A stretch of 64,000 nt of DNA from a virus, in IMG/VR virus record IMGVR_UViG_3300027762_000001; one strand, given 5' to 3'. The translations under genes and the position numbers were made by a program. Below are positions 1,500-33,714 of the stretch, one piece after another. The number at the start of each line of letters is the position of its first letter. Position 1 is the first letter of the stretch. The notes beneath the pieces are model-generated. The model saw only the letters and a program-made list of their open reading frames with translations. It made no database searches and was not told where the DNA came from.

Positions 1500-1572
1500 A
1501 GATAGGCTGCTTTACTTTGATTGCTATTTATAATAAAATTTAAATTGAAAACATAATAAAGGAGGTTTAATC

Positions 1573-1716
1573 ATGGAATATAAAAATCATCCAGGATTTA
1601 TCGCTTTTAAAGCTTCTAATGTAAAAGAAGATGTAAGCTGTAAAGAAGAAAATATTGATAAAGATATCGTTGAGCCTGAGAAAAAGAATGAAGGTGGTGA
1701 CGAAGGCAAAGAGTAA
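1573..1716 (+). CDS. small acidic hypothetical protein (47 aa, MEYKNHPGFIAFK...), not in ORF track
   Basis: AAAGGAGG RBS at 1558-1565, ATG 1573, TAA 1714-1716. Confidence 0.6.
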   Translation: MEYKNHPGFIAFKASNVKEDVSCKEENIDKDIVEPEKKNEGGDEGKE

Positions 1717-3586
1717 AATCTTTGCCTTAATACTTATGAGAAAATTATCTGATTCTATAATAAAAGAAGCATGTGAAGAACTAAATGTTGAAGGAAAGCT
1801 AGAAAAAAAGGCTTTAAACTTTGCAGATTTTTCTTTTTTGCCAGGATCTATATTGGGCTCAATAACTGGCTCAATTATAGCTGGGAATAAAGTTAAAGCT
1901 GAGAACCTTCAAAGAAGAATGGAAGAAGAGGACAGAACAGCTTTAAGCGGAAATTATTATAACCAGGCTCAAAATATAGTTAATAACTTAAAAGTTGTAT
2001 TCACGCCATTTGGAGTTATATATATAGTAAAAGATGGCCCTAAAGAAACTACGATTGAAAATATAAACACAAATGAAATGAATACAGCTATGTACTCTGC
2101 TTGGCAAGCTAAAGATGCAGAATACTTTAAAAATATACTATTAAACAAAATGCAAAGTGAGCTTCAATTTGTTGAACAAATGTTTGCAAAAAAAATGGTG
2201 GAAAAACAGCTTGGTATAAATAATACGATAAAACAAGAAAAGAAAGCATCTATAGATTTTAATGACTTAACTTTATATGAAACTTTAGAGTATGTATCAA
2301 AAATGAAGGATATGTATTCTAAACAAAATGAAGCTACAGAGAAGATAGCATCTCTTTTAATTAATGAGATGGATGAAAGAGAAGATGATTATGTTATATC
2401 TTTAAAGTTAGAAAGACCAGTAGAAAAATATGCTTTCTTCGGAGAGGCTTTAAAATTTATGGGGCTTGAAGTAGGAAGTAAAGACATAAAATCATTACAA
2501 GGAAAATTTCTTAATCCATCACATTTAAATAATAGAGTTCAAGTAGGCTTTTTACCTGATAGAGTTGTTTTTATAGTTGATAATAAGGTTATGTCTTCTC
2601 TTCTTGCTATGGATATGAATGAGGAGGGATTTGAGAATTTTAATAAAAGTAATGAAGGTTACTTTAGAAACTTATTTAAAGAAGAAGCTAAAAAAGGAAT
2701 GTTAAGAATTCAAGGTAAGATTCCGCCTAATTCTCCTTTAATGAAAATGCAAGAAAAAAAAGCATCTTTTGAGGATAATGACTTATCTCAAATCTTTAAA
2801 AGAAACGACATACATCCTTTAATTTATTATAAAGCTTTAACAAAAACATTCGGTGATACATGGATTTCATGGGACGGCAATGCACTTGTTAAAGCAATAG
2901 AAAACTCTTTTAATTTAAAAGATGGTGTACCTAGTATTCCACTAAATAAAATATTATCAATAGAAGTTTGTAATTCTAGCTATACTCCATATACAAGTAA
3001 GCATGCTTTCGAGAAGATAATAAGAGGTTTTACTGAAAAATCAGTTAACTTTATGGAGAGAGAAATCTCAGATATAACTCCAGAAGATTTAGCTCTAGGT
3101 ATAGATGCTTTAGATTTAGTAACTCCTAATGATGATATATATGATAATTTCAATCATGAAGTCTTCTCTCATATAATTGAAATCTTATTGATAAATAATT
3201 GTAAAATATTTTATCCGTCAGAAATGACAGACTCTGTTTTAAAAGATGAATTTTATAGTCAATTAAATGAATATCTTTTAAATGCTACAAATAAAAAAGA
3301 TATTGAAGCTATAGACAATAAGAAGCTTGAGAGTAAAACCATAAGTAATAATACGATAATAAATAAAGTATCTTTATCTATACTTAACAATATAAGGAAA
3401 GTAAAAAAATCTTCTGATTTTGATAATATAAAATTCATTTCAGATGTACTAAATAAAACAAGTATAGAAGATAATATAAAAAGCATTATTGAAAAACAAG
3501 TTACAAATAATATATTTTTAGATGAAGTATTGGTTATCAAAACAAGAGTATTAAAAGAGCAACTCGCTTTTCTTGAGCTAAATTAG
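1688..3586 (+). CDS. putative virion head protein with multiple EK-x-A tags (start uncertain: 1655, 1688 or 1736)
   Basis: Long ORF just upstream of the portal. Tags LEKKA, QEKKAS (x2), TEKIAS, VEKYA; one Gly-rich segment GSILGSITGSIIAG. Confidence 0.6.
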   Translation: MKVVTKAKSKIFALILMRKLSDSIIKEACEELNVEGKLEKKALNFADFSFLPGSILGSITGSIIAGNKVKAENLQRRMEEEDRTALSGNYYNQAQNIVNNLKVVFTPFGVIYIVKDGPKETTIENINTNEMNTAMYSAWQAKDAEYFKNILLNKMQSELQFVEQMFAKKMVEKQLGINNTIKQEKKASIDFNDLTLYETLEYVSKMKDMYSKQNEATEKIASLLINEMDEREDDYVISLKLERPVEKYAFFGEALKFMGLEVGSKDIKSLQGKFLNPSHLNNRVQVGFLPDRVVFIVDNKVMSSLLAMDMNEEGFENFNKSNEGYFRNLFKEEAKKGMLRIQGKIPPNSPLMKMQEKKASFEDNDLSQIFKRNDIHPLIYYKALTKTFGDTWISWDGNALVKAIENSFNLKDGVPSIPLNKILSIEVCNSSYTPYTSKHAFEKIIRGFTEKSVNFMEREISDITPEDLALGIDALDLVTPNDDIYDNFNHEVFSHIIEILLINNCKIFYPSEMTDSVLKDEFYSQLNEYLLNATNKKDIEAIDNKKLESKTISNNTIINKVSLSILNNIRKVKKSSDFDNIKFISDVLNKTSIEDNIKSIIEKQVTNNIFLDEVLVIKTRVLKEQLAFLELN

Positions 3587-3597
3587 GAGGGTAAACA

Positions 3598-5565
3598 ATG
3601 AGTGATATAAATAAAGACATAACAGAATTAGATGAACTTCCAATGAACGCCATAGATCTTGACAATCCTCTTGATGGTGATGATAAAAAAATTGCAATGT
3701 TAAGAGAGGAAAAAGATAAGGCTATAAGTATGGTGAAGATTGCATCTTTTGATGGAAGACTTCAAGACCCATACCCTACTCCATTTTTAAATTTATCCGA
3801 TACCAAGATACCTAGGACATCAACTGAAATTTTTAAATGGTGTAAATATTTTTATACTTTTGACCCGCTAATTGCAGGAGCCATTAATGCACTATCCACT
3901 TTTCCAGTTACTGAAATTTATTTAGAAGATGTAGATGAAAACGGAAAAGGCGATAAAAATGAAGATAGTGATACTTTAATTTTATATAAAAAAATCTTTT
4001 TTAAAGATTTAAATATATATAAAATGTTAATTGAAATAGGTATAGATTATTATTTGTATGGCAACTGCTTTATATTTGGAGAACTACATACAAATAAAGC
4101 AACTGGTAGTGTTGAGTGGAAGAACATGGTGAGACTTGATCCTAATAGAGTTATTATAGATTATAACCCGGCTACAAAAGAAAAGAAATTTAAATGGAGA
4201 GTATCTCCATCTATTGCTAAAATTATAAAAGATAAAAAGCCAAAAGATGAGTATAATAAAATACCAGATATAATGAAAGAGGCAGTACTTAAAAATAACT
4301 CTATAGTATTAAATTCAAATAATATATATCACTTCCCAAGACCTACAGATTCAGCGGGAGATAATAATATTTGGGGAACACCTATTATTGCAAATGTACT
4401 AAAACTTTTAATGTATAGAAATATATTAAGACAATCTCAGGAGGCTATTGCGAGAGAACATATAGTGCCTATGAGAGTTTATTATTTAGATAGAACCAAT
4501 GATTATAATCCTACGGCTGATTGGAATAAAGTTGCATCTAACTTTGCTGCTGAACTTAATAAATCAGTAAAAGACCCTAATTATAAAGTTGTATCTCCTG
4601 TTCCTGTTAATTTGATAAATGTTGGAGGTCAAGGAAGGGCTTTATTATTAACTCCAGAAATAGAGCAAATACAAGCTGAGATTTTGGCAGGAATGAATGT
4701 TCCAAGAGAGTTTATATTTGGTGGAGTTGGTTATTCTGGAAGTTCTATATCTTTAAAAATATTAGAAAATCAGTTTATAACTTATAGACTTTTACTAAAA
4801 GACTTTATGCAAAACTTTATAATAAAAAATATGGCTAAAGCTAGAAAAGAATGGGTTAGTGAAAAGGATGATAGTTCATTAATTACAGTTAAAATGATGG
4901 ACTTAAAAATGCAAGATGACGTACAGCAAAAACAATTAGTAATACAATTAAATCAAGCTGGCAAATGTACTAATGAGTATATGTGGAAAGTTATAGGAAT
5001 GGACCCTGATAAAATGAGGGAGTCATTAAAAGATGAAGCAATAGAAGCTATAAAAACTGATACAGAAATAAAAATGGAGCAGTTAAAATCACAATTAGAA
5101 CTTCAAAAGGTGCAGATGCAAGTAGATCAAGAAATAAGAAAATTCCAATTAGAGATGTATAAAAGTGACCCACAAATGAATCAGGAAGAAGCTCAAATGA
5201 GTCAGGAACAACAAATGATGCAACAGCCTATGCAAGGACAGGGTCAAAGTCAAGACCAAGGTATGCATCCAGCGGCACAAGGTCAAATGCAACCAGAGCA
5301 AATGCAACCAGAGCAAAATCCAGCTATTGACGAATCTGATGTCGTCAATGAGGATGCTCAGATTCAAAATGTTGCTCTTCAATTAATTAAAACAGGGGAA
5401 AAAGGAAGAGATGCTTTCTTAGCTTCCTTGCCTGATAGATATAAACAAAAAGTTATAAAGAAAATGCAAGAATTAACAACATCTATGAATAATCAGCAAG
5501 GTGCAGGAATAGATATGAGACCTATGCCAGAACAAAAACCACCAAGAAGAGATAGCCTAAAATAA
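3598..5565 (+). CDS. phage portal protein with Q/M-rich C-terminal tail
   Basis: Portal-like segments DPLIAGAIN, IGIDYYLYGNCFI, RLDPNRV, IYHFPR, WGTPII; GGAGG RBS; terminase 9 kb away. Confidence 0.75.
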   Translation: MSDINKDITELDELPMNAIDLDNPLDGDDKKIAMLREEKDKAISMVKIASFDGRLQDPYPTPFLNLSDTKIPRTSTEIFKWCKYFYTFDPLIAGAINALSTFPVTEIYLEDVDENGKGDKNEDSDTLILYKKIFFKDLNIYKMLIEIGIDYYLYGNCFIFGELHTNKATGSVEWKNMVRLDPNRVIIDYNPATKEKKFKWRVSPSIAKIIKDKKPKDEYNKIPDIMKEAVLKNNSIVLNSNNIYHFPRPTDSAGDNNIWGTPIIANVLKLLMYRNILRQSQEAIAREHIVPMRVYYLDRTNDYNPTADWNKVASNFAAELNKSVKDPNYKVVSPVPVNLINVGGQGRALLLTPEIEQIQAEILAGMNVPREFIFGGVGYSGSSISLKILENQFITYRLLLKDFMQNFIIKNMAKARKEWVSEKDDSSLITVKMMDLKMQDDVQQKQLVIQLNQAGKCTNEYMWKVIGMDPDKMRESLKDEAIEAIKTDTEIKMEQLKSQLELQKVQMQVDQEIRKFQLEMYKSDPQMNQEEAQMSQEQQMMQQPMQGQGQSQDQGMHPAAQGQMQPEQMQPEQNPAIDESDVVNEDAQIQNVALQLIKTGEKGRDAFLASLPDRYKQKVIKKMQELTTSMNNQQGAGIDMRPMPEQKPPRRDSLK

Positions 5566-5577
5566 GGATGTGATTAA

Positions 5578-5793
5578 ATGAAAAGAGGAATAAAAACATT
5601 TATACTTCCTATGCAGGATAAAGAAGCTTCAATTTTTATGAATAATAAAGATATAGTTGTAACACTAAAGGAGAGACACTTTGCCCCAAAAGAGGGATTA
5701 CTATATTTATATATAGAATATGACGACTTCGCTCCTGAAGGTGAAGATTATGAAGATTGTGATGAAGGTGGGTGTTTATTAAATGATACATGA
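5578..5793 (+). CDS. small acidic hypothetical protein between portal and RNAP
   Basis: ORF with RBS-like AAGGATGTG; overlaps the RNAP start. Confidence 0.6.
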   Translation: MKRGIKTFILPMQDKEASIFMNNKDIVVTLKERHFAPKEGLLYLYIEYDDFAPEGEDYEDCDEGGCLLNDT

Positions 5794-8700
5794 AAAAACT
5801 GAAGATTTAAAAAGAAGACTTATGAATTTTATGCAGAGGAATACACCCATTAAGGCTGATACTAGAAGTTTACATATTGAGAACTTAACTATAACAGAGC
5901 CTTCAGCAGTAAATGATTTAGACCAACAGCTTAACATGAAGTATTCTGAATCAGGAAATTTAAAGGGTTGGCTTAGGGGAAATGTTACAGTTACAGACAA
6001 TAAAACAAATAAAGAAATAGCAAAAACTAATCCGATAAATTTAATACCTGTATATTATATGACTGATAGAGGTACATATATAAGTAATGGTATTGAGAAA
6101 AATATTTTAACTCAAATGAGATTAAAACCTGGAGTCTATACTGAAAAAGGTGCTGACATAAGAACCAATCTTATGTTTGATATGACAAAACAGTATCTTC
6201 CTAGAATAGATATTATATTTGATCCAGGTGCAATGTCATTTAAAATTATTATAAAAAGAGGAAAAGACACTAAATTTGATGGCATTGGATTTTTAAGAGA
6301 ATTAGGTTTTTCTGATGCTGAAATAAAAAGAGCTATTGGTAACGATTCAGTTTCTGATATGCTATTTTCAGTAAGCAGAGAAAGAAAAAGTATATACGAT
6401 ATATTTAAAGCTATAACTGGTAAAACATCTAGTGATACGCCAGATAAAACAAGAGATATGTTATTTTCTTATTTTGATAATGAAATGACGTTTGGAGAAG
6501 ATGGTAAGGAGTCAGTTAAATCAACTATAAATTCAAGTTCTAAAAGTTTAAATAAAGATATAATATTAAGGTCTGTAAATAAAAACTTTGCGGTATTTAG
6601 AAATGAAGTTGAAGAAGACGATAAAGATGATTTAAGATTTAAAGTTGTATCAGATGATAATGATTTGATAATGGAAGAAGTTGCACAAGACTTTGAGGTA
6701 TTTAAATCATCTGTAATAAATACTTTAAATACAAGAGAAGTTTTAAATTCATCAGACTTAAGAGGATTAACTAAGTTAGGGAAAAATATTGATAAATTCA
6801 TGAAAGAAAGTGATTTATCGCAAAATCCGGAACAGACTAATCCACTAGAAATAGCATCCATTGATAGAAAAGTTACTCAGATAGGTGGGTTTCAAGGTAT
6901 ATCAAAAGACAATGCTGACAAAGTTATTAAACCAAGAAACTTAAAAGCTATGGCAATTAATAGATTAGATCCAGTTGAAACTCCAGAGTCAACAAAGATA
7001 GGATTAATAGAACATTTAACTCAAAGTGCTGAGGTTAAAAATAAAACTATTAGTACAGAGTTTATAAAAGTAAAAGATGGCGTTGCCGTAAATACTCTTG
7101 CCAATGTAGTTAAATTAACTCCAGATAAAGAGTATGACTCTAAAGTTGCCTTTTATGATTTAAGATATATAAGAAAAGATGGTAACAAAATAATATTTAC
7201 AAAAGATGTAATTCCAGGAAGATATAAAAGTAAAATTCAAGATATTCATATAAGTGAAATACAGTATGTTGATAGAGCTCCGCAAAACCTTTTAAATTAT
7301 GCTGCAAATATGATACCCTTCGTAAGTCATGATGATGGAAACAGAACACTTATGGGTACTAATATGCAAAGACAGGCTGTCTCAATTATCAACAGAGAAG
7401 TTCCACTTGTTATGTCTGCGTCTGACGATAAAAGGACATATGAAGATGTTATAGGGGAAAAATATGGGAAGCCAGTAAATTCAACGACTAGTGGAGTTGT
7501 AAAAGATATAACTTCATCTAGAATAATAATTAAGGATGAAAAAGGAAAAGAGCATGCTCATAATTATTACGACCATTTTCCTGTCAATCAAAGTTTTATC
7601 AATAATGAGCTATTAATAAAAAAAGGACAAGAAGTAAAAAAAGGTCAAATGCTTGCAGAAGGATGGCAAACTAGAGACGGTAAACTTGCCTTAGGTGCAA
7701 ATGCAAGAGTTGCTTATATGCCATTTAAAGGCTTTAACTATGAAGATGGTGTAGTTGTAAGTAAAGACTTTGCTAATAAAATGTCAAGCGAAGAAATGCA
7801 TCAAGTAGAAATTGAAATTTATTCTGACTACTTAGGTGGTAAAGGTAGTAACATACGGGATGAGCTAAAAAAGTACACAGTTAACCAAGAAATTTTAACT
7901 AGGCTAGATAAAGACGGAATAATAAAAGAGGGCTCATACGTAAAGCCAGGCAATATACTAGTGGCATTCTTAGCTCCAGAAGATAAATATGAAACTTATG
8001 GACTATCAGAAGTCTTAGGAATTAAAAAGAAAAATGTAACTTATAAGCTGGGCCAAAAAATAATAGAGGAATCTAGTTATTTAGAAGGTACAGTTAAAAG
8101 AATAAATATAATAGAAAGTCCTGAAGCAGGAATAAAACAAAAAATAGTAGTATCTCTTTTAAGTGAAAAGTCATTAAAGCTAGGAGATAAAATTTCTGGT
8201 AAGCACGGAAATAAAGGAATAATAACAAAGATACTCCCTACATCTGAGATGCCTGTAGCTGAAGATGGCAAAAATGTTGACTTAATCTTTTCTCCATTAG
8301 CGGTACCTTCAAGGAAAAATTTAGGCCAATTATTAGAAGTCAATGCTGGATTAATAGCAGAGAAAAAGGGAAAACCTTTTATTGTAAATAATTTTGACCC
8401 TAAAGAAAAAGAGAGAGTTGAAAAAGAATTAAAAGAAATAGGTATTCCTGATGGAAAAATGAAAGTTAGCTTAAGAGAAAGACAAGACGATGACAGCATT
8501 AAAGAAATCCCTGTAGACAATCGTGTTACAGTTGGCAATATGTATATAATGAAATTAAAACACAAAATTGATGATAAAGTTCAATCAAGAAGTAACATTG
8601 AAGGTGTTGCTCCTGAAAGAAAAACATTTATGCCTGCTAAAAAATTAGGTCAGGCACAAGGCGAAAAGTACAATCCTCAAAGACTTGGTGAAATGGAAAT

Positions 8701-11700
8701 GAGGGTATTGCAAGCTCATGGAGCTGTTCATAATATATTAGAGAGCTCCACTATAAAAGCTGACGGTGGAGGAAATGAACAAAATAGAATAGCAATATAC
8801 AATGCTATAGCCACAGGAAAACTAGATAGCTTAGATTTTTCTGCCACTCCAGAGACTATAAATGTAATGGCTGATACATTAAAAGGGCTAGGCTTAAATG
8901 TAAAACCTATCAATAATGGAGATGTAGCTAAATCATTTGATGAAGCTTATGATAGTTTAGCTGTTGTGCCTATGAAACCTAGTCAAATGATTAAAATGAT
9001 AGGTAAGGATAACGAGGTTACTCAGCCAAAAATGTATGACGCAAAAGCTGGAGGAAGACAAGTCCCATATAGAAGGGGGCTTGCTGACCCTGAAATTTTT
9101 GGAGATGATAAGAGCTCAGATTTAGAGGATAGAAAAAAATGGGGTTATATAAAACTTGGCACTCCAATTCCAAACCCTATACTTATGTCCAATGCATCAT
9201 ACAATCCATACTCTTTAATAACTGGGATGAAAGATAGTCAGTTGAAAGAGTTAATGGACGGTAAGAAAGTTATGGTAATTGACCCTGAAAAATATGAGGC
9301 TTTTAAGGGTAATAAAGAAAAGATAGAGGAAGTAAAAGCGAATATGGATAAGCTAGGTTTTAAGCCTGGTGATTTAGTTGATCCTCAAAAGCTTGAAAAA
9401 TTAGATTTAGATAGTAATGTAATTTTATGGAAAGCTGGAGGAGAAGGCATTCAGCATTTATTAGATAATGTTGATCTGGAATCTGAACTGAAAAAATCAG
9501 AACAAAAACTAAAAGATGCCAAGCCTAAAGATATAGATAAACATTATAAAAAATATAAATCACTTTTAACATTAAAAAATAACAACTTAAATCCTGGTGA
9601 CTTAATGCTTCACTATCTACCTGTTACGCCTCACTACTTTAGACCCACTCAAATGCAAGGTAAAAAAGTAGTATTGTCAGATTTAAGTGAACTCTATGGT
9701 AATGTTATAAAATCTAATAACTCTATAATTAATAACTATGAAAGTGGCTTTGACATGATAGGTGACTCAGACCCTGAACAGGCTGCAAGACTTACTAGGT
9801 CACTTTATAAGACAGTGTCTTATGCAACTGGAGACAAGGAATATTATCATCCACGAAAGAAACGAAAAATGCTAGGAATAATAGAGAGTTTAGGTAAAAA
9901 AGAAGGCCTTATAAGAAATAAAATGCTAGGGAAAAGAGTAGATTTTTCTGGAAGGTCAGTTATTGGTGTTGATCCTAACTTAAAGTTAGATGAGGTTGGA
10001 ATTCCTCTTGATATGGCTAAAAATATTTACAAGCCTTTTATAGTTAAAGAATTAATGAGTAGAGGCTTGGCTAAAGACAGAAAAGAAGCTACTAAGAAGA
10101 TAAAAAAAGGTGATAGTGATGTTAAAAAGATATTAGATGATTTAGCAAAAGACAGACCAGTATTATTAAATAGAGCTCCATCACTACATAAATTTAATAT
10201 ACAGGCTTACACTCCCGTTATAAAAGATTATCAGGATGGCGAAGCTGTGAAGATAATACAATTAAATCCGTTGTCTGTATCAGGCTACAACGCTGATTTT
10301 GACGGGGACACTATGTCTGTCCACCTCCCTGTAACTGAAAAGGCCAATGAGGAAGCTAAGAAACTAATGAGACCATCAGATAATTTAATAAATCCTACAA
10401 ATGGAAAAATGATAGTTGAAATACGTCATGAGATGGCATTAGGCATATATTATCTAACGATGAGCTCTGACAAGGTAAAAGGTGAAGGTAAAACATATAG
10501 CAATATAGAGCAATTAAGAAAAGATTTTAAAGATGGAAATATAAATGTAAAAGATAAAGTTACTATCGGAGGCAAGACATCAACAGCAGGTCAAGCAATG
10601 TATAATTTACTCTTACCTGAAAAATATAGAAATTATAGTTTAGCATGGTCCGCAAAAGATATATCTAAGATGTTTTTAGAGATGTATCAAGAAGCAGAAA
10701 GAACTAATGGAAAAGCTATATCTATAAGTGAAGTTAGTAGAATATTAGATAATGTAAAAGATTTAGGTTTTGAAGCATCTACAAGGTCTGGAATTAGTAT
10801 AGGTATTGGTGACTTTAAAAAGATAGAAGATGCAGATCAATTATTCGATTCACATGTGAAAAAAGAAATGAAGACAAATAAAAATCCTAATGATGCTAAA
10901 ATACAAGGTTGGCTTAAAGCTGAAGGAGAAATACAGGATAGGCTTAAAAAAGGTGAAATTTTAGCATATGATAATCCTGTTCAAATAATGATGGCATCAG
11001 GTGCAAGGTCAAAACCTGACCAAGTAAGAAGAATGATGGTAAGTGTTGGTGTTGGTATGGATTTGACCGATAAATTAACAAGCCCAGTTAAACACTCTCA
11101 CTTAGATGGATTATCTCCACAAGAGTACTGGACTCACAGTTACGACTCTAGAAAAGGTATGTATGATAGAACCGTAGAAACGAGAGAGCCAGGAGCATTC
11201 TCTAGAGAGGTATGGAGTGTAACTCAGGATATTGTGATAAAAGAAAAAGATTGCAAGACTCGTGACGGAATAAGTATACCAAAATCAAACCCATCAGCAT
11301 TAGGAAGATTTTTATCTGAAGATGTTTTAGGTACATCTTCAATAATTGCAACGAGAGATTCGCTAATAACAAAAGAGGTATATGATAAAATTTATAAAGA
11401 TGAAACTGTGAAAATGATAAAGATAAGGTCTCCATTAAAATGTAAGGTTGTAAATGGCCTTTGTCAGAAGTGTTACGGAACTATGCCTGGTACTATGCAA
11501 ACTGCAAGTATAGGCTCTCCAACAGGAGTTATAGCATCACAAGCATTATCTGAGCCTGCAACGCAGATGACAATGAATACATTCCATAGTGGAGGAACAG
11601 GGTCAGCTGCAACAGTTGGATTTCCTAGAATTAAACAAATACTTAATTTATCAAAAGATAGTGAGAGTAAAGCAGTCTTAGCTAGAACATCGGGCAATGT

Positions 11701-12613
11701 TATATCTATCAAAAAGGGTGCAAAGGGAACATTTGATATAGTTAGAATAAGTAATGTTGACCATAACGTTCCTCACACAAAAGAAGGTGCTAGTCAAAAG
11801 ATTAAAGTTTCTATTGGTGATAATGTAATAAAGGGTGACTTTTTAACTTACGGAGATATAGATGATATAAATGCTGGAGAAAAATTAATATTATCAGCAG
11901 ACCCAAGAGAGATGTTTGCGTTGAAGAGTGAAGAGCTAGGTCAAGATAAGGCATGGGATTATACTCAGAACTATTTAACTAACAGCATACAAAGAGCTTA
12001 TGAAGATACATTTGGAATAGGGGCTGTAGATAATAGGCATTTAGAAACAGTGGTGTCTAAAATGACTTCGAGAGTTACGATAATGGATCCGGGAGATTCA
12101 AACTTTATAAGAGGCGATGTAGTAGAAAAGAATCAAGCAGACCAATGGAACTCTATCAATGCTGGTGAGTTTAGTGTTAAAACTAAGAATGTAAGTAATG
12201 CAGGTGAAATCTTAAACAGTGTTGCGCATGAAACATATAAAGATAGAGCTGGAAATACAATAGTTTCAAAAGGTGATATGTTTACAGAAGAAAATATTCC
12301 AAAATTAATGTTAGCAAATATAAGCCAAGTAAAAGTTAAACCAAAGCCAGTTAAATATAATATAGAATTATTAAGTAAGAATCAGGCGGTAACAAAAGGG
12401 CATGATAATTGGCTTAGTAATATGGGTCATGAAAATGTAAAAGAACAATTAACAAGAGCGGTTGTTAAAGGACAAGTTGATAAATTAAATGACCCTAGAA
12501 CTAGACTCATGACAGGAAAGCTGTTAAATATCGGTGAAGGGTTTAATGCTGTTAAACAGAAAGCTAACAGTATTGCAAATAGGATGTTCAACTTCTTTAG
12601 TAAAGATGATTAA
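5783..12613 (+). CDS. rpoBC: single-chain fused beta-beta' DNA-directed RNA polymerase (phage-encoded)
   Basis: Beta motifs: PVETPES, HDDGNRTLMGTNMQRQA, GFNYEDG, GDKISGKHGNKG, PSRKNLGQ, QRLGEME. Beta' motifs: LGKRVDFSGRSVI, NRAPSLH, catalytic NADFDGD (10289-10309), SEPATQMTMNTFH, CQKCYG. No stop between the two halves. Confidence 0.95.
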   Translation: MIHEKTEDLKRRLMNFMQRNTPIKADTRSLHIENLTITEPSAVNDLDQQLNMKYSESGNLKGWLRGNVTVTDNKTNKEIAKTNPINLIPVYYMTDRGTYISNGIEKNILTQMRLKPGVYTEKGADIRTNLMFDMTKQYLPRIDIIFDPGAMSFKIIIKRGKDTKFDGIGFLRELGFSDAEIKRAIGNDSVSDMLFSVSRERKSIYDIFKAITGKTSSDTPDKTRDMLFSYFDNEMTFGEDGKESVKSTINSSSKSLNKDIILRSVNKNFAVFRNEVEEDDKDDLRFKVVSDDNDLIMEEVAQDFEVFKSSVINTLNTREVLNSSDLRGLTKLGKNIDKFMKESDLSQNPEQTNPLEIASIDRKVTQIGGFQGISKDNADKVIKPRNLKAMAINRLDPVETPESTKIGLIEHLTQSAEVKNKTISTEFIKVKDGVAVNTLANVVKLTPDKEYDSKVAFYDLRYIRKDGNKIIFTKDVIPGRYKSKIQDIHISEIQYVDRAPQNLLNYAANMIPFVSHDDGNRTLMGTNMQRQAVSIINREVPLVMSASDDKRTYEDVIGEKYGKPVNSTTSGVVKDITSSRIIIKDEKGKEHAHNYYDHFPVNQSFINNELLIKKGQEVKKGQMLAEGWQTRDGKLALGANARVAYMPFKGFNYEDGVVVSKDFANKMSSEEMHQVEIEIYSDYLGGKGSNIRDELKKYTVNQEILTRLDKDGIIKEGSYVKPGNILVAFLAPEDKYETYGLSEVLGIKKKNVTYKLGQKIIEESSYLEGTVKRINIIESPEAGIKQKIVVSLLSEKSLKLGDKISGKHGNKGIITKILPTSEMPVAEDGKNVDLIFSPLAVPSRKNLGQLLEVNAGLIAEKKGKPFIVNNFDPKEKERVEKELKEIGIPDGKMKVSLRERQDDDSIKEIPVDNRVTVGNMYIMKLKHKIDDKVQSRSNIEGVAPERKTFMPAKKLGQAQGEKYNPQRLGEMEMRVLQAHGAVHNILESSTIKADGGGNEQNRIAIYNAIATGKLDSLDFSATPETINVMADTLKGLGLNVKPINNGDVAKSFDEAYDSLAVVPMKPSQMIKMIGKDNEVTQPKMYDAKAGGRQVPYRRGLADPEIFGDDKSSDLEDRKKWGYIKLGTPIPNPILMSNASYNPYSLITGMKDSQLKELMDGKKVMVIDPEKYEAFKGNKEKIEEVKANMDKLGFKPGDLVDPQKLEKLDLDSNVILWKAGGEGIQHLLDNVDLESELKKSEQKLKDAKPKDIDKHYKKYKSLLTLKNNNLNPGDLMLHYLPVTPHYFRPTQMQGKKVVLSDLSELYGNVIKSNNSIINNYESGFDMIGDSDPEQAARLTRSLYKTVSYATGDKEYYHPRKKRKMLGIIESLGKKEGLIRNKMLGKRVDFSGRSVIGVDPNLKLDEVGIPLDMAKNIYKPFIVKELMSRGLAKDRKEATKKIKKGDSDVKKILDDLAKDRPVLLNRAPSLHKFNIQAYTPVIKDYQDGEAVKIIQLNPLSVSGYNADFDGDTMSVHLPVTEKANEEAKKLMRPSDNLINPTNGKMIVEIRHEMALGIYYLTMSSDKVKGEGKTYSNIEQLRKDFKDGNINVKDKVTIGGKTSTAGQAMYNLLLPEKYRNYSLAWSAKDISKMFLEMYQEAERTNGKAISISEVSRILDNVKDLGFEASTRSGISIGIGDFKKIEDADQLFDSHVKKEMKTNKNPNDAKIQGWLKAEGEIQDRLKKGEILAYDNPVQIMMASGARSKPDQVRRMMVSVGVGMDLTDKLTSPVKHSHLDGLSPQEYWTHSYDSRKGMYDRTVETREPGAFSREVWSVTQDIVIKEKDCKTRDGISIPKSNPSALGRFLSEDVLGTSSIIATRDSLITKEVYDKIYKDETVKMIKIRSPLKCKVVNGLCQKCYGTMPGTMQTASIGSPTGVIASQALSEPATQMTMNTFHSGGTGSAATVGFPRIKQILNLSKDSESKAVLARTSGNVISIKKGAKGTFDIVRISNVDHNVPHTKEGASQKIKVSIGDNVIKGDFLTYGDIDDINAGEKLILSADPREMFALKSEELGQDKAWDYTQNYLTNSIQRAYEDTFGIGAVDNRHLETVVSKMTSRVTIMDPGDSNFIRGDVVEKNQADQWNSINAGEFSVKTKNVSNAGEILNSVAHETYKDRAGNTIVSKGDMFTEENIPKLMLANISQVKVKPKPVKYNIELLSKNQAVTKGHDNWLSNMGHENVKEQLTRAVVKGQVDKLNDPRTRLMTGKLLNIGEGFNAVKQKANSIANRMFNFFSKDD

Positions 12614-12620
12614 AACTTTA

Positions 12621-12644
12621 AAAGAGCCGAGAGGCTCTTTTTTT
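12621..12644 (+). terminator. intrinsic terminator after RNAP
   Basis: AAAGAGCC-GAGA-GGCTCTTT plus T-run. Confidence 0.85.
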
Positions 12645-12657
12645 ATTTTCCAAAAAA

Positions 12658-12674
12658 TAGCATTAGAAATAAAA
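12658..12674 (+). promoter_or_regulatory. conserved phage promoter-like motif (variant)
   Basis: TAGCATTAGAAATAAAA between a terminator and an RBS. Confidence 0.6.
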
Positions 12675-12697
12675 TTAATGAAAGGAAAGTGAATAGT

Positions 12698-12862
12698 ATG
12701 ATTAAAAAGATGAAAGAATGTTGGAGTGAAATGGATAGAGGTGAAAAATTAAAAACAGTATTATATGGTGCCGCAGGAATTGGATTTGTATTTATGGTAG
12801 CTGGGACATATGGAGCTGTAAAATTATCAAAAGAATTATATGAAATTATGAAACCGCAATAA
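12698..12862 (+). CDS. small single-TM protein (54 aa, MIKKMKECWSEM...), not in ORF track
   Basis: RBS AAAGGAAAGTG, hydrophobic VLYGAAGIGFVFMVAGTYGAV, flanked by the promoter motif and a terminator. Confidence 0.7.
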   Translation: MIKKMKECWSEMDRGEKLKTVLYGAAGIGFVFMVAGTYGAVKLSKELYEIMKPQ

Positions 12863-12864
12863 CG

Positions 12865-12891
12865 AAAAAGAGCCGAAAGGCTCTTTTTTTT
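12865..12891 (+). terminator. intrinsic terminator
   Basis: AAAAGAGCC-GAAA-GGCTCTTTT plus T-run; near copy of 12621-12644. Confidence 0.85.
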
Positions 12892-12898
12892 GCAATTA

Positions 12899-12917
12899 TA
12901 GCATAAGATATAAAAGG
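12899..12917 (+). promoter_or_regulatory. conserved phage promoter-like motif
   Basis: TAGCATAAGATATAAAAGG. Confidence 0.7.
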
Positions 12918-12923
12918 AAAGGA

Positions 12924-13139
12924 GTGATTAAAATGAGTGATAAAAATTCTAAAAAAACAAAAATACCATCTGATTTACATGAGGAAGATAAAGAAACTTT
13001 AAAGGAATTTATTGATTCTGGAGCTGATGTAGATATAAGAGATGAGGGAGATCATTTAGTTGCAAATATAACGAATTTAGACGAAGAAACAATAAAGTTT
13101 ATAAAAGAATATTTAGATATTCCTGATGATGAAAATTAA
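12924..13139 (+). CDS. small acidic hypothetical protein (likely start 12933)
   Basis: ORF with GGAGTG RBS, followed by a terminator at 13143-13168. Confidence 0.65.
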   Translation: MIKMSDKNSKKTKIPSDLHEEDKETLKEFIDSGADVDIRDEGDHLVANITNLDEETIKFIKEYLDIPDDEN

Positions 13140-13193
13140 TCTTGAGCTTTAATAAGCTCCTTTTTTTTGTCGTTTTTTATTTCCATTTTTTGG

Positions 13194-13210
13194 TAGTATA
13201 AGGAATAAAA
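13194..13210 (+). promoter_or_regulatory. conserved phage promoter-like motif
   Basis: TAGTATAAGGAATAAAA. Confidence 0.7.
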
Positions 13211-13227
13211 TGAAGGGAGATGATAGT

Positions 13228-13710
13228 ATGAACTATGAAGAATTTGCAGGCTTGCAAAATAAAGTATCAGAGCTAAATGGAAATTTTAGATTTAAAATTA
13301 TGCAAAAAGTATTTGAAGATTCAGGCATAAATTTTACAAAAAGAATGATGTTTTATTATATAGAAGATAATTTAATTCCACCAATTCATAAATTAAATAA
13401 AAATCAAGCTTACTATACAAAGGAGCATATTTACAGATACTATCTTATATCTTTATTGAAAGAGTGTCTGAGTTACGAAGAGATAAAAATATTCTTTGTG
13501 CAAAATAAAGAAGATATAGATAAAATGGATTCAGAAAAGTTGATAGAGTTAAATTTTAAGATACTGCCTAAAATACACACTGAATTATATAATAGAATTC
13601 TCTTAAGTGAAGAAAGAGAGCAGTGCGATTTTAAGAATCTTTATGACAAATTTGTAAATCTATCAATTTTATATAACTCTAAAAAAATGCTTATAAATAG
13701 AGATGAATAA
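13228..13710 (+). CDS. MerR-like/DUF1836-type HTH regulator
   Basis: TKRMMFYYIEDNLIPP...YYTKEHI....LI..LK..LSYEEIK is MerR-like; GGGAG RBS before ATG 13228. Confidence 0.6.
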   Translation: MNYEEFAGLQNKVSELNGNFRFKIMQKVFEDSGINFTKRMMFYYIEDNLIPPIHKLNKNQAYYTKEHIYRYYLISLLKECLSYEEIKIFFVQNKEDIDKMDSEKLIELNFKILPKIHTELYNRILLSEEREQCDFKNLYDKFVNLSILYNSKKMLINRDE

Positions 13711-13730
13711 AATGAAGGAGGATGATTGAT

Positions 13731-13931
13731 ATGTTTGTTAGCGTAGAGAAGGAGCGTAAAAAAAAATATTATGAAGAAAATAAAGATAAAATACTTGAGA
13801 GACAAAGAGAGAATAGAAGAAAAAAAAGATTGAAAAATAAACCAAAAGTAAAGGCCCGTCAAATAAATCGTTGGGTTGAAAATGTTTTAAAATATGTTGC
13901 AAAAGCAGAGAATCATGAGAGTGAAGAATAA
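13731..13931 (+). CDS. small basic hypothetical protein (KKYYEENKDKI motif)
   Basis: GGAGG RBS; similar to the repeats in 45524-45949. Confidence 0.6.
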   Translation: MFVSVEKERKKKYYEENKDKILERQRENRRKKRLKNKPKVKARQINRWVENVLKYVAKAENHESEE

Positions 13932-13946
13932 AAGGAGGATGATAAT

Positions 13947-14306
13947 ATGACAAATTTAAATGATGTACTAAAATATGCAAAGATAATAAATAAAATAATT
14001 GAACGATACACAAATGATAATGATATTGAAAAGTTTAAAAAGTCAATGGAAGGGATTGAAAGGAAATTAAAAAGAGATATAGCTAACAGTAAACCATTAG
14101 AAATTGGACCTTCAAATTTCTGTATGGGAGCACTTGTAATTGAAAAGGCTATTTCGCATTTACTAGAAATAAAATCTAGGCATGAGCCTAAATCACAAAA
14201 TATTAAATTGGTGCCAACAAGAAAGATTATCAAAAAAGATTTAGAAAAAATTAAAGATATTAGCGCTAAATCTTTTAAAAGATATAAAGAGGAATGTGAA
14301 GAATAA
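13947..14306 (+). CDS. hypothetical protein flanked by 30-bp direct repeats
   Basis: GGAGG RBS; repeats at 13921-13950 and 14296-14325. Confidence 0.7.
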   Translation: MTNLNDVLKYAKIINKIIERYTNDNDIEKFKKSMEGIERKLKRDIANSKPLEIGPSNFCMGALVIEKAISHLLEIKSRHEPKSQNIKLVPTRKIIKKDLEKIKDISAKSFKRYKEECEE

Positions 14307-14321
14307 AAGGAGGATGATTAT

Positions 14322-14411
14322 ATGAATTGGGATAAAATTACTGATATAGGCCTAGGAATAACTAGCATTATACTTGGAGTTGCATTAATTGCACTAAGAA
14401 TAAAAAAATAA
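14322..14411 (+). CDS. 29-aa single-TM peptide (MNWDKITDIGLGITSIILGVALIALRIKK)
   Basis: GGAGG RBS; followed by a hairpin terminator at 14418-14439. Confidence 0.6.
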   Translation: MNWDKITDIGLGITSIILGVALIALRIKK

Positions 14412-14443
14412 TCTACAGAGCTTCATAGCTCTTTTTTTTCGTC

Positions 14444-16060
14444 CTATAACGTCTGACCATAAGCACTAGAAAACGCAATACCAGTATCTCCAGCTTCAGG
14501 ATATAAAAGTTGAGCTAAATATGCATATATGCAGGAGTGCATACCATCGTCAGGTTGACCCTCTGGATGAGTGTAAATTAAATCTTCAGATCTTCCATTC
14601 TGACTTTTTCTATACTCTTTCATTTCAGCTAAGTGATGGTCAAACATCCACATAAATTTATCTTTATCATAACCTGCCCATGCAACTCTTTGTTCATATA
14701 CAAATCTTACATAGTTAGTTATAACTTTACTTCTATTTACAACCCATTTTAAATCCTTTTGGTCCCACTTTGTTTCTTCTTTTTGATTAAAAGAATAATA
14801 ACATGCCATAACTCTTAATCCAAATCTCTTTTGAAGTTCTTTATATTGAGTAAAACCAAAACCCCAGTCAACTATACAACATGCAATTTTAAAAATCTGC
14901 ATTAAGTTAGATATATCTCTTAACTGATAATCAGGCTCTATCTCTTCACTTCTATGATATTTTTTAGTATAAAGCATCTGATACTTTCCTTCTGCATTAA
15001 AAGAAAATATGCTAACTATAGTAAATGATTTTTCTCCTTTACCCCAGTCTACCCCCATGAAGTTTCTGGTGTTCGTAAAATAGCCTTCTGCTCGATTATA
15101 AAGCTTAAAGGTGTTATTAGATATCTGAGATAGAATTAAGTGGTTAAATGGCTTTTCTGCGTCCTCATAGCTACGTCCTAAAACCTCGTTATGAAACTTA
15201 TCCATTGAGTATGTTTCATACTTATCCCAAATGTCTCCAGGTAATATCCATGGCACCATAAGTTGCGATATTCTAAACCCATACATTTTTTTGCCAGGCT
15301 GCAAGGGATACCACATTCCACATGATATAGATTCTTTAGGAATTTCCATTCTACATTTTCTACATAAAAAAGCATCAGGGGATAAATTCTTAACCCCTAA
15401 TATCTGATATTTATTACAATGAGGGCATTTTACGACCCACTCATTTTGATTACTTCTATCCCAATACTGCTGAATTGTATTTCCGAAAGTCTTAGGTGTT
15501 CCTGTGTACCATGTAACTCTTATTCCTGCACCTGTATCTAAAGCATGAGACTGTGTTTCTTTTATAACAGGAATTGCATCTATGTGTATATCTTGTATTT
15601 CATCCCCCCAGATTCCGTTACAAGTTATACCCCTTATATTATCTCCATATTCAAAGCAATGCTTAAAATAATTAACAGAGCCATTTGTGAACTCTTTTAA
15701 CATAACAGCTTGAGCACAATTTTTATCTATGTAACTCTTTTTTATTATGCTCTCCTGACTATACTCATAAAGCTTTCCTATTCTCTCTCTTGAAAATGTT
15801 CTGACTTGCTCTGTGAGTGGAGCAAAATATAAAGCCCTAAAATGAGGTATTAAAAGAGTATGATTAGCCATATGTACAGAACTTGTCGTAGATTTCTCTA
15901 CCTGACGCCCCGACATTATCATACCCTCTTCTATAATACTATTATATATTGGCAATAGATAACTTCTATTTTTAAGCCTAAAAGGTTTCCCCTCTAACAT
16001 ATAGACGCTTTCTGCAAATGTTGAAGGAATAACCTCTAATTTTTTTTGCTCTTCACTCAA
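14444..16060 (-). CDS. terL: terminase large subunit
   Basis: Walker A-like SGRQVEKST, Walker B WGDEIQD, coupling motif TGTP, CPHC/CRKC Zn ribbon, RNase H-like GVDWG...DDGMHS. Confidence 0.88.
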   Translation of the reverse strand: MSEEQKKLEVIPSTFAESVYMLEGKPFRLKNRSYLLPIYNSIIEEGMIMSGRQVEKSTTSSVHMANHTLLIPHFRALYFAPLTEQVRTFSRERIGKLYEYSQESIIKKSYIDKNCAQAVMLKEFTNGSVNYFKHCFEYGDNIRGITCNGIWGDEIQDIHIDAIPVIKETQSHALDTGAGIRVTWYTGTPKTFGNTIQQYWDRSNQNEWVVKCPHCNKYQILGVKNLSPDAFLCRKCRMEIPKESISCGMWYPLQPGKKMYGFRISQLMVPWILPGDIWDKYETYSMDKFHNEVLGRSYEDAEKPFNHLILSQISNNTFKLYNRAEGYFTNTRNFMGVDWGKGEKSFTIVSIFSFNAEGKYQMLYTKKYHRSEEIEPDYQLRDISNLMQIFKIACCIVDWGFGFTQYKELQKRFGLRVMACYYSFNQKEETKWDQKDLKWVVNRSKVITNYVRFVYEQRVAWAGYDKDKFMWMFDHHLAEMKEYRKSQNGRSEDLIYTHPEGQPDDGMHSCIYAYLAQLLYPEAGDTGIAFSSAYGQTL

Positions 16061-16515
16061 GGAGTGTCACTTCCTTTAATTATGTGGTCATATGCACGAG
16101 TATATGAAAGCTCACCTTCTGCAGATAGATGTTCTCCCCAAGAAACTGTTGGTGTTGAAACTTCATCAATTGTAACTATCTTTTTATCTTTACTCATTAT
16201 TTCAGTACTTTCAACGCCATTTCTATCTTTTATAATTAAATAGTTTTTTATATCATAGTCGAAATTTTCTGCATTAGTAATAATTATACCAGCATTAATG
16301 CATTCTCCAAATTTAATGTACTTATCATTTAATGTAACGCCTACTCTTTTTCCTGTATATGATTTAACAAAATCAAAACAATCAGAGATATCATCATAAA
16401 AATTAACAGTTTCTCTTTGCTGATTTATTATATGATCCATCTTACTGTCCGTTATAGTGAGGAAACTTTTTATCTCTTTTATATCATTTAAAAATTCTTT
16501 TATTTTTCTAAACAT
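16057..16515 (-). CDS. hypothetical protein
   Basis: ORF overlapping the terL start; co-oriented. Confidence 0.65.
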   Translation of the reverse strand: MFRKIKEFLNDIKEIKSFLTITDSKMDHIINQQRETVNFYDDISDCFDFVKSYTGKRVGVTLNDKYIKFGECINAGIIITNAENFDYDIKNYLIIKDRNGVESTEIMSKDKKIVTIDEVSTPTVSWGEHLSAEGELSYTRAYDHIIKGSDTP

Positions 16516-16820: not shown

Positions 16821-16940
16821 TATTTGATCACCCTACACCATCATAATATATATTTTTTTAAAAATCAATATATTATTCGTGCTTGATATATATATAAAGT
16901 TTTGATAGAATATATATCAAGCACCGAGAAAGGTGATGAA

Positions 16941-33713: not shown

Positions 33714-33714
33714 T

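Follow-up and report, generated by a model that had tools for sequence, protein, structure and literature searches.

Introduction

The closest described relatives of the enzyme reported here are found in Salmonella phage Arash (gp206 plus gp216; OQ632216; PMC10585845) and Vibrio phage D69 (VPHD69_0261 plus 0264). Both phages infect Gram-negative hosts, and each genome encodes one RNA polymerase (RNAP) together with a phage sigma factor. The published Arash annotation names the RNAP pieces simply 'beta' and leaves a fusion unmentioned. Mass spectrometry of Arash virions detected gp206 more than any other protein, the major capsid protein included (3516 spectra and 128 peptides), and gave 1210 spectra for gp216, 877 for the portal and 467 for the sigma factor gp10 (PMC10585845). 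Of about 270 proteins, 116 counted as virion-associated in that preparation, and the authors caution that non-structural proteins, where abundant, may be carry-over (PMC10585845).

Another relevant group is the mReC phages (multi-subunit RNAP-encoding Caudovirales; Weinheimer and Aylward 2020, PMC7481178), whose beta and beta' are treated as two subunits, fusion being mentioned for crAssphage only. What defines this clade is a capsid of the Gp23 type (PF07068) together with a PF03237 terminase (PMC7481178). The RNAPs of the phiKZ/AR9 jumbo phages (PMC7598289, PMC7824862) are likewise of the multisubunit type and without alpha or omega, and one set is packaged for early transcription.

This report addresses a 64,000-nt stretch of viral DNA, IMG/VR record IMGVR_UViG_3300027762_000001, which is called the window throughout. 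The source phage genome is roughly 150 kb in size, its contig measuring 152.6 kb. The window contains a gene for a continuous beta-beta' RNAP chain, and the literature searched, coverage of which was incomplete, yielded no phage RNAP described as a single bacterial-type beta-beta' chain. The first-pass annotation had set the gene beside the Helicobacter and Wolbachia fusions and the phiKZ/AR9 enzymes, an incomplete comparison, as the closest relatives are the Arash-like and mReC-type phage RNAPs.

The RNA polymerase chain and its domains

The gene product, P0001, and its parts are laid out as follows.

5783..12613, + strand: single-chain beta-beta' RNA polymerase (P0001), 2276 aa
5783..8899, + strand: beta part, compact, with shortened lobe (residues 1-1039; Pfam Rpb2_3, Rpb2_6, Rpb2_7)
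6815..6886, + strand: equivalent of rifampicin cluster I with non-consensus residues, from alignment to 8i23_C (LSQNPEQTNPLEIASIDRKVTQIG against the bacterial segment)
7997..8038, + strand: flap-tip region, retained, aligned to bacterial beta segment (l)LRAIFGEKAREV
8183..8218, + strand: beta active-site motif GDKISGKHGNKG (residues 801-812), the GxKxxxxHGxKG lysine motif
8900..8968, + strand: beta to beta' linker (residues 1040-1062), from the family alignment
9092..9157, + strand: site of the missing beta' zinc-binding domain (CxC...CxxC, about 28 aa), a gap in the junction alignment
9665..9829, + strand: clamp helices (coiled coil), retained, from an AF2 model of residues 1040-1420
10289..10309, + strand: catalytic NADFDGD of beta', from the motif and the Rpb1_2 match
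11252..11473, + strand: second zinc site of beta', retained (C1824, C1887, C1894, C1897)
11573..11596, + strand: trigger-loop motif MNTFHSGG, from the motif and the Rpb1_5 match

The ORF is free of internal stops, and its start codon is backed by the conserved N-termini of five relatives. Pfam places Rpb2_3, Rpb2_6 and Rpb2_7 at residues 350-1042 and Rpb1_1 to Rpb1_5 at residues 1077-2106; seven beta/beta' domains exceed their curated cut-offs (best E 2e-64), and Rpb1_4 falls below its own (19.2 vs 24.8 bits). The beta double-psi barrel domain is matched by PF00562 at E 2.4e-64, with PF04560 matched as well. The motifs ETPESTKIGLI, DDGNRTLMGTNMQRQAV, GDKISGKHGNKG, NADFDGD (residue 1503) and MNTFHSGG can be read along the chain, which is about 30% identical to bacterial beta and beta' and has strong Pfam and PDB sequence matches. 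Domain order and motifs show that P0001 is a true single-chain bacterial-type beta-beta' enzyme with every catalytic module, as the first-pass annotation had claimed for this one 2276-aa ORF. The junction, which it had put near 8850-9030, lies within that range, and the linker is short and conserved, with no stop or frame change in 11 of 11 aligned family members.

The beta part aligns from end to end with beta subunits of cyanobacterial or plastid size, and at residues 211-224 the alignment leaves it about 120 aa less than Firmicutes beta. The changes at rifampicin cluster I are, in E. coli numbering, D516E, H526I, R529K and S531T. In bacterial RNAP the flap tip is the docking site of sigma region 4, and the clamp helices are that of sigma region 2. 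The AF2 model of residues 1040-1420 contains two long helices (1295-1320 and 1331-1349) with a pLDDT, averaged over 10-residue blocks, of about 74-87 and one dip to 54. Foldseek aligns this clamp model with bacterial beta'/gamma chains over about 315 columns at probability 1.0, and phmmer aligns the segment before the helices to beta' 166-269. The N-terminal zinc-binding domain of beta' (about 28 aa) is deleted in 11 of 11 aligned family members, a gap visible on alignment with the cellular fusions P0097, P0103 and P0120, while the second zinc site accounts for all four cysteines of P0001. Across the family the clamp helices are kept and this zinc-binding domain of beta' is lost. The word 'streamlined', used of the enzyme at first, thus fits the shortened beta lobe and the absent zinc-binding domain, but not the remainder of the chain, in which all other modules are present.

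A conserved portal-linked module

The RNAP gene lies in a transcription unit with the portal gene, bounded by the following features.

3598..5565, + strand: portal protein, first gene of the module (phrog_16240, E 1.7e-18)
5578..5793, + strand: 71-aa ORF between portal and RNAP, its position conserved in relatives
12620..12641, + strand: intrinsic terminator at the end of the portal-RNAP transcription unit (9-pair stem with 4 GC pairs, then a T-run)

Only 12 nt separate the end of the portal from the 71-aa ORF, whose own end is overlapped by 11 nt by the RNAP, starting at the ATG at 5783. The direct succession of portal, 71-aa gene and RNAP, and the terminator behind them, had both been read correctly from the DNA at the outset. 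The portal is 56-62% identical to those of six relatives (L001-L006) and homologous to Arash gp204 and the portal of D69 (E 1e-32 to 6e-35). The 71-aa ORF has counterparts at the equivalent position in L001, L002, L004, L005 and L024; a word-indexed search with it returned only the self-match, and it was a profile search that recovered relatives, reaching 67 cluster representatives. Its AF2 model is a beta-alpha-beta-beta arrangement (pLDDT 79), for which fold searches gave only generic small alpha/beta matches, with Z at most 5.3.

Five loci from IMG/VR and a single MAG contig keep the portal-RNAP synteny, and every relative has the RNAP gene in the same orientation as the portal and joined to it by translational coupling. 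These observations support the RNAP gene being part of a conserved portal-linked module. Other proteins of this phage that are putatively internal to the head carry a KVADYIDGMYKE-type leader. In a search of all six frames this leader occurs in the SNF2 gene only and is absent from the RNAP.

Sigma factor, alpha, omega and a promoter-like motif

The first-pass annotation saw no alpha, omega or sigma gene in the window, and Pfam found none of these families among 38 window ORFs. These comprise every ORF of at least 140 aa in a greedy non-overlapping set, the 84-aa WYL ORF and the 71-aa ORF; ORFs overlapping a longer one (such as 25182-25661) and most of those below 140 aa fall outside the scan. 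Since short window ORFs were left out, an omega-sized gene (about 53 residues) is covered only by the search of the complete relatives. In these two relatives, G001 and G002, alpha (PF01000, PF01193) and omega (PF01192) are absent, with the positive controls detected in 10 to 14 genomes. For sigma the original statement does not hold beyond the window, since both complete relatives encode a SigF/E/K-like sigma70-family factor with r2 and r4 domains, although their sigma gives no tblastn match in the window itself. Against Arash, the G001 sigma gave a marginal match only (E 0.004), at a locus other than that expected of gp10, and against D69 none. There is one gene for catalytic beta' per complete genome.

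Because the clamp helices and flap tip are kept and the complete relatives carry a sigma, the enzyme is probably sigma-dependent, and a phage-encoded factor is its likely partner. That it needs neither host alpha nor host omega is slightly favoured. Alpha-independence is plausible by analogy with the phiKZ/AR9 enzymes, which are an established precedent that phage RNAPs without alpha and omega can be active (PMC7598289).

A candidate for the DNA target of the enzyme begins just behind the terminator.

12658..12674, + strand: promoter-like motif TAGYATAAGRWATAAAA, first copy, probable target class of the enzyme

All copies in the window lie on the + strand, 10 of them exact and 3 with one mismatch, those at 12658, 12899 and 13194 being among them, and 0 of 100 shuffles reach this total; G001 has 15 copies, G002 has 7 and the control has 0. 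One of the G001 copies stands 69 nt upstream of the sigma gene. Co-occurrence of motif and enzyme suggests that the RNAP reads this TATAAG-type motif. No copy is present in 1-12613, and none drives the portal-RNAP unit. A scan of 1-17000 for sigma-70 consensus promoters stayed at shuffle level (87 found vs 88 expected) and was uninformative.

Family and phylogeny

Phage contigs of 130-170 kb carry the same fusion in at least 85 clusters from metagenomes, at 32-56% identity and with lengths of 2200-2340 aa; two complete genomes with terminal repeats belong to the family. The hosts of the family are likely Bacillota. No split form was found among the close relatives; P0121 begins mid-domain, with V at residue 1163, and is on that account a contig-end fragment.

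In a beta' tree, obtained by a quick LG+G4 search with the top-scoring hits (CPR, Firmicutes, Campylobacterota) as the bacterial sample, the family is monophyletic (99-100) and sister to the Arash/D69 group (99). When the tree is rooted on archaeal A'+A'', an outgroup whose rpoB/rpoA loci were picked up by a degenerate-pattern scan of genome contigs, all phage RNAPs are jointly sister to the sampled Bacteria. Nesting within host rpoB/rpoC, which on short branches was one of the outcomes that the first-pass annotation had named as refuting its claim, is not seen; the family forms a clade outside the sampled Bacteria. P0001 is very probably the active RNAP core of a deep phage lineage.

Proposed mechanism and alternative explanations

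We regard as fairly likely a scheme in which a single-chain core and a phage sigma are packaged and start transcription without the host enzyme. The chain would fold into a crab-claw core with neither an alpha2 platform nor omega, the beta-beta' tether taking over the assembly role of alpha. The phage sigma would dock on this core via the kept clamp helices and flap tip, and the holoenzyme would read phage-specific TAGYATAAG-type promoters that head non-structural gene cassettes. The RNAP gene would be expressed with the portal, late in infection, and the enzyme, probably with sigma, would enter the capsid and reach the next cell along with the DNA, so that the next infection could begin transcription independently of the rifampicin-sensitive host enzyme. 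Packaging of the RNAP in the virion, suggested by analogy with Arash, is itself somewhat favoured.

An origin by recent capture of a host rpoB-rpoC pair, or by bacterial contamination or misassembly, might be suspected, as several 'phage' database matches at 29-30% identity (H1-H4, H9-H12) are in fact bacterial rpoBC in mislabelled records. Captured genes would be hard to reconcile with best cellular beta' matches of no more than 28-32% identity, in which CPR and Firmicutes are equally represented, or with 185,579 species genomes in which no prophage copy and only two small MAG contigs were matched. Contamination is opposed by a gene order that recurs on independent contigs, the two complete genomes among them, and by a GC content (0.30-0.34) in line with the flanks. 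Together with the separate clade, these results refute this explanation, the chance of which we consider negligible. A more serious alternative holds that the fused chain still recruits alpha2 and omega from the host, and perhaps host sigma A too. Cellular rpoBC fusions and an engineered E. coli beta::beta' fusion do assemble with alpha2 and omega, fused forms in cells still use alpha, and P0001, at about 30% identity and with all Pfam domains, is much closer to bacterial beta/beta' than the phiKZ/AR9 enzymes are. Yet the two complete relatives lack alpha and omega genes and encode their own sigma, a packaged enzyme would have to carry host subunits along, and phage RNAPs devoid of alpha and omega are active (PMC7598289); host assistance of this kind is doubtful.

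It could also be that nothing is packaged, and that the RNAP is made during infection to transcribe middle or late genes with the phage sigma, leaving the earliest genes to host RNAP. No leader for head targeting can be recognised in the RNAP, host sigma A could in principle be first to read the TATAAG-type motif, which is similar to a -10 element, and the sigma gene of G001 itself stands behind such a motif, so that some factor must read the motif before new sigma exists. The -10-like hexamer, however, ends in G where sigma A favours T. In every relative the gene is tied to the portal by translational coupling, and it lacks a TATAAG promoter of its own; if produced along with the portal, the enzyme would arrive too late for middle genes, and only one RNAP is available per genome. 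In the Arash virion, gp206 out-scored even the major capsid protein, although the authors of that work allow for carry-over of abundant proteins. A purely intracellular role is rather unlikely, and the packaged core with phage sigma is the preferred reading.

Comparison with known systems and implications

Arash and D69 resemble the window in having a homologous portal followed by a small ORF and then directly by the RNAP gene, the likeness of their small ORF to the 71-aa ORF being one of position, and in having beta fused to beta' at the same junction. They differ from P0001 in sequence, with only about 26% identity, and in that their beta' is cut after the catalytic barrel and continued in a separate gene (in Arash 4.7 kb away), whereas beta' of the window is continuous. 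Arash gp206 corresponds to residues 11-1596 of P0001 and gp216 to about 1656-2118; the 640-nt spacer splitting the D69 RNAP gene contains no intron by Rfam. The mReC enzymes share with the window family a beta and beta' recognisable with cellular HMMs and a branch that is sister to Bacteria and lies within no cellular clade. Rhizobium phage Y65 has Gp23 (PF07068), which G001, G002, Arash and D69 all lack, and the window TerL matches PF05876 and phrog_675 only, so it is not of the PF03237 type that defines mReC.

The cellular rpoBC fusions (Helicobacter, Wolbachia and the CPR/MAG proteins P0120, P0103 and P0097) have the same order, beta then beta', and are joined, like P0001, where the two termini meet in the clamp. 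Unlike P0001 they keep the zinc-binding domain and have longer linkers, with 2300-2890 aa in total. Helicobacter-type fusions nest inside the bacterial clade and the window family lies outside it; the phage beta-beta' fusion is of independent origin from the cellular ones.

A broader interpretation is offered tentatively. The family and the Arash-like group may form one large unnamed lineage of tailed phages, whose capsids would contain a two-protein holoenzyme (a single-chain core without alpha, omega or the zinc-binding domain, plus phage sigma) and which would be host-independent from the first minute, with a private promoter class bearing G at the last -10 position. If this is true, the enzyme would be a minimal natural form of the bacterial transcription machine, a self-assembling single chain with one sigma, which would test the roles of the alpha platform, omega and the beta' zinc domain and be a convenient object for structural and synthetic-biology work. 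Through the portal-RNAP module, hundreds of uncultured phage genomes of 130-190 kb are tied to the cultured and tractable Arash and D69, and the deep-branching phage RNAP clade is extended beyond the T4-like mReC.

Among virion-delivered enzymes, the N4 vRNAP is T7-like. Together with crAss-like gp66 and the tape-measure-fused RNAP of P23-45 (PMC10770324), it is delivered from the virion as one very large polypeptide that transcribes early genes, as is proposed for P0001; the crAss and P23-45 enzymes have no ordinary sequence similarity to beta/beta', unlike P0001. The phiKZ/AR9 RNAPs comprise 4-5 polypeptides in two sets per genome, lack a sigma70-family factor and are far more diverged, whereas the window family has one chain and one set, with a sigma in the complete relatives. 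If packaging is true, these phages would represent a third, sigma-dependent route to virion-delivered transcription, beside those of N4/crAss and phiKZ.

The fused RNA polymerase gene and its operon

The RNA polymerase (RNAP) of this phage, hereafter P0001, is encoded by one open reading frame of 2276 codons. Its Pfam domains are Rpb2_3, Rpb2_6 and Rpb2_7 within residues 350-1042 and, after them, Rpb1_1 to Rpb1_5 within 1077-2106; the beta motifs (ETPESTKIGLI, DDGNRTLMGTNMQRQAV and GDKISGKHGNKG) and beta' motifs (NADFDGD and MNTFHSGG) are intact. Solved bacterial beta chains can be aligned to the beta part from about residue 83 to 1042, and the beta' part to beta' of Firmicutes, mycobacteria, Thermus and E. 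coli. The junction between the two lies at residues 1040-1062 (nt 8900-8968). The main features of the operon are as follows:

3598-5565, + strand: portal gene (phrog_16240)
5783-12613, + strand: fused RNAP gene
12620-12641: terminator (hairpin and T-run), 3' of the RNAP gene

A 71-aa ORF starts 12 nt past the end of the portal gene, and its end shares 11 nt with the start of the RNAP gene, whose ATG is preceded by an AAGGTGG-like ribosome site. No alpha, omega or sigma domain was found by Pfam in the window, the scan covering every ORF of at least 140 aa in a non-overlapping set together with two small ORFs; the sigma factor of relatives, used as a tblastn query, had no match in the window either. 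The first-pass annotation, which had described all main beta and beta' motifs in one 2276-aa ORF, a junction near 8850-9030, a gapless run of portal, 71-aa gene and RNAP closed by a terminator, and a window devoid of alpha, omega and sigma genes, is thus borne out on each of these points.

The position of the 71-aa ORF is conserved, and its family comprises 67 cluster representatives. Its predicted fold is a beta-alpha-beta-beta unit, for which fold searches with the model returned no specific relative; the product may assist either the portal or the RNAP. Further upstream, the operon contains a stand-alone WYL-domain protein of 84 aa (1245-1499, +), found at the same position in the related loci L001, L004 and L005, and an SNF2 helicase elsewhere in the window (19863-21995, -) is headed by a paralogous WYL domain. 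Between 1560 and 1660, a strong ribosome site (AGGAGG) with an ATG at 1575 is out of frame with a 643-aa ORF (listed start TTG 1655), and may be where this conserved gene really begins, or else belong to a short ORF upstream of it.

Domains retained, lost and changed

The beta lobe of P0001 is about 120 residues shorter than that of Firmicutes beta, the difference falling between residues 211 and 224. None of the 11 aligned family members retains the beta' zinc-binding domain (CxC...CxxC), which has been excised cleanly, and P0001 has no cysteines beyond the four of the second beta' zinc site. Residues 1040-1420 were modelled with AF2 from 6 input sequences (mean pLDDT 62); in this model, residues 1121-1369 reach a mean pLDDT per 10-residue block of mostly 74-90, with local dips. 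The model contains two long helices, 1295-1320 and 1331-1349, and bacterial beta'/gamma clamp regions match it with probability 1.0; as modelled, these are the clamp helices, the dock for sigma region 2. The flap-tip segment is alignable too. The equivalent of rifampicin cluster I carries non-consensus residues, at what we take to be positions D516, H526, R529 and S531 of E. coli, and the enzyme is therefore likely, judging from its sequence, to be insensitive to rifampicin.

A large family on phage contigs

The window belongs to a contig of 152,624 bp with a GC content of about 30% all along, and also encodes tail-fibre proteins with Mtd_N domains, NlpC/P60 lysins, an SLH-domain protein and a terminase:

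14444-16060: large terminase (phrog_675)

The source is most likely a large tailed phage of a Gram-positive host. Metagenome-assembled genomes (MAGs) binned with relatives of P0001 were assigned to Herbinix, Paraclostridium and Bacillus. Among 185,579 species genomes, the gene occurs in just two small MAG contigs, with no prophage copy. The Mtd_N (major tropism determinant N-terminal) domain begins three proteins (27312-33731, 34081-34788 and 26718-27293, all -), one of them 2139 aa long, which look like a paralogous set of tail-fibre or receptor-binding proteins. An 800-aa protein (54879-57281, -) joins an N-terminal ATP-dependent DNA ligase domain to about 500 residues without a family match, and a tail lysin lies in the same block.

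By protein search, the P0001 family numbers at least 85 clusters, 2200-2340 aa long and with 32-56% identity over the full length, many of them on contigs of 130-170 kb. Shorter near matches are fragments only; P0121, considered as a split form, was rejected, as its first residue is a V that corresponds to position 1163, which indicates a cut at the contig end. Cellular beta' proteins, of CPR bacteria as well as Firmicutes, come next, with 28-32% identity. Five IMG/VR loci and one MAG contig share the gene order internal protein, WYL protein, 643-aa protein, portal, small ORF and RNAP, and these loci include two complete genomes with direct terminal repeats, G001 (166,758 bp) and G002 (160,540 bp). 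Inteins lie within the RNAP gene of some relatives (locus L005, 10001-18379; proteins P0006, P0084, P0093 and P0095), and such insertions, with Hom_end and LAGLIDADG_3 domains, lengthen the fused product to 2600-3100 aa. Several phage-collection records labelled as Enterococcus, Staphylococcus, Listeria, Salmonella or Acinetobacter phages matched at 29-31% identity via ordinary bacterial rpoB/rpoC, which suggests contamination by host DNA or bacterial contigs under a wrong label.

Phylogeny of the beta' part

A beta' tree was computed from 58 sequences and 1050 columns (LG+G4, SH-aLRT); it is a quick search under a site-homogeneous model, with bacteria sampled from top hits and several rows skewed in composition. 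The P0001 family is monophyletic (support 100). A second clade (100) unites fused phage proteins of 2000-2170 aa with the cultured Salmonella phage Arash and Vibrio phage D69, and a third (100) holds every bacterial beta' in the sample, the Helicobacter-type and CPR fusions among them. Four archaeal A'+A'' sequences served to root the tree; the two fused phage clades are then sisters (99). Joined by beta' of the T4-like Rhizobium phage Y65, they make up a clade of phages alone (93), whose sister group is the sampled Bacteria (99). Nesting among host genes, which the first-pass annotation had set against its own reading and proposed to examine by phylogeny, is not seen among the sampled bacterial beta' of this 58-sequence tree, and a recent capture from the host is refuted, because the phage clade stands outside, and sister to, the sampled Bacteria. 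The tree agrees with the deep-branching clade described for the RNAPs of Caudovirales that encode a multi-subunit RNAP (mReC) (Weinheimer and Aylward, PMC7481178).

Partner subunits and a promoter-like motif

Each of G001 and G002 has one gene with Sigma70_r2 and r4 domains, SigF/E/K-like in that the best matches are sporulation-type sigma factors, far under the equivalog cut-offs. Alpha (PF01000, PF01193) and omega (PF01192) had no match in G001 and G002, while the same searches were positive in 14 of 14 control genomes. In cells as in engineered constructs, fused beta-beta' chains still work with alpha. The covalent tether is a plausible stand-in for the alpha assembly platform, and the beta/beta' core of jumbo-phage RNAPs works without alpha and omega (PMC7598289). 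On balance, we lean slightly towards an enzyme that is independent of alpha.

A promoter-like motif, TAGYATAAGRWATAAAA, occurs in the window between 12658 and 62770 in 10 exact and 3 one-mismatch copies, on the + strand only, a count reached by no shuffle:

12658, 12899, 13194, 22023, 36321, 38674, 40989, 44215 and 62754, + strand: examples of TAGYATAAGRWATAAAA copies

The distance to the start codon and ribosome site downstream is 15-70 nt for most copies and about 140-340 nt for three; many copies directly follow terminators, the first being 17 nt past that of the RNAP gene. The motif is conserved, with 15 copies in G001 and 7 in G002, always on one strand, and none for a reversed-pattern control. 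The motif is absent from window 1-12613, and in G001 all copies are on the strand opposite the portal-RNAP unit, so that this unit and the motif-headed cassettes fall into different temporal classes. The phage holoenzyme would read this motif; the final base of its -10-like hexamer, a G, speaks against host sigma A. The sigma ORF of G001 has one copy 69 nt upstream.

Proposed packaging in the virion

LC-MS of purified Arash particles gave the following values (PMC10585845).

Spectra of Arash proteins in purified particles
gp206 (beta and N-terminal part of beta'): 3516, more than any other protein (128 unique peptides; coverage 100%)
gp226 (major capsid protein): 1333
gp216 (C-terminal part of beta'): 1210
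gp204 (portal): 877
gp10 (sigma): 467

Its authors caution that abundant infection proteins were possibly carried over, 116 proteins being scored (PMC10585845). Gp205, the equivalent of the 71-aa ORF in position, is absent from the listed virion proteins. By analogy with Arash, we consider it fairly probable that RNAPs of the P0001 family are packaged. The invariant coupling to the portal gene counts in favour, as do an RNAP unit without a promoter of the early-type class and the presence of one multisubunit-type RNAP per genome (a single beta' catalytic gene in each of G001, G002, Arash and D69). Furthermore, the sigma gene of G001 stands behind the promoter class that the holoenzyme is thought to read, so pre-made sigma or host help would be needed. 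Against packaging counts that the RNAP lacks a leader of the KVADYIDGMYKE type found on other proteins of this phage. This peptide occurs twice in the WYL-SNF2 protein (window 20107-20142 and 21664-21699), and the genes either side of the G001 sigma gene (L010:502-1026 and 2276-3139) start with the similar leaders MDKVAYYEDIIYKEA and MDKIAYYEDCIYKMA.

Comparison with known systems

Phage-encoded bacterial-type RNAPs (mReC), virion RNAPs, and RNAP with sigma in Arash particles are already published, and sequences of the P0001 family are public in databases under automatic names. In the searchable literature, we found no description of beta and beta' as one chain in these phages, of a fusion that ties the Arash/D69 group to a large Gram-positive-associated family via a portal-linked module, or of the zinc-binding domain shed with the sigma docks kept in this enzyme.

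In Arash (OQ632216), the portal gp204 precedes gp205, which is small and overlapping, after which comes gp206 under the annotation 'RNAP subunit beta'; D69 has the same order in 0259-0260-0261, and each of these two portals is matched by that of the window (E 1e-32 to 6e-35). Gp206 spans P0001 residues 11-1596, which is all of beta and beta' through the catalytic barrel, and gp216 spans about 1656-2118. The beta-beta' junction is therefore common to both clades and probably ancestral to them, whereas the Arash group has an extra split within beta', which is continuous in P0001. In D69, a 640-nt spacer with two small ORFs (L016:7365-8004) interrupts the RNAP gene after the catalytic barrel, with no intron detected in it by Rfam; in D181 and D148, sister phages of D69, the matched region contains a homing endonuclease. 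G001, G002, Arash and D69 lack the Gp23-type capsid, the defining trait of most mReC, which phage Y65 does have, and the window terminase is GpA-like, not PF03237. The morphogenetic module therefore differs from that of T4-like mReC, although the RNAPs of both fall in one deep phage clade.
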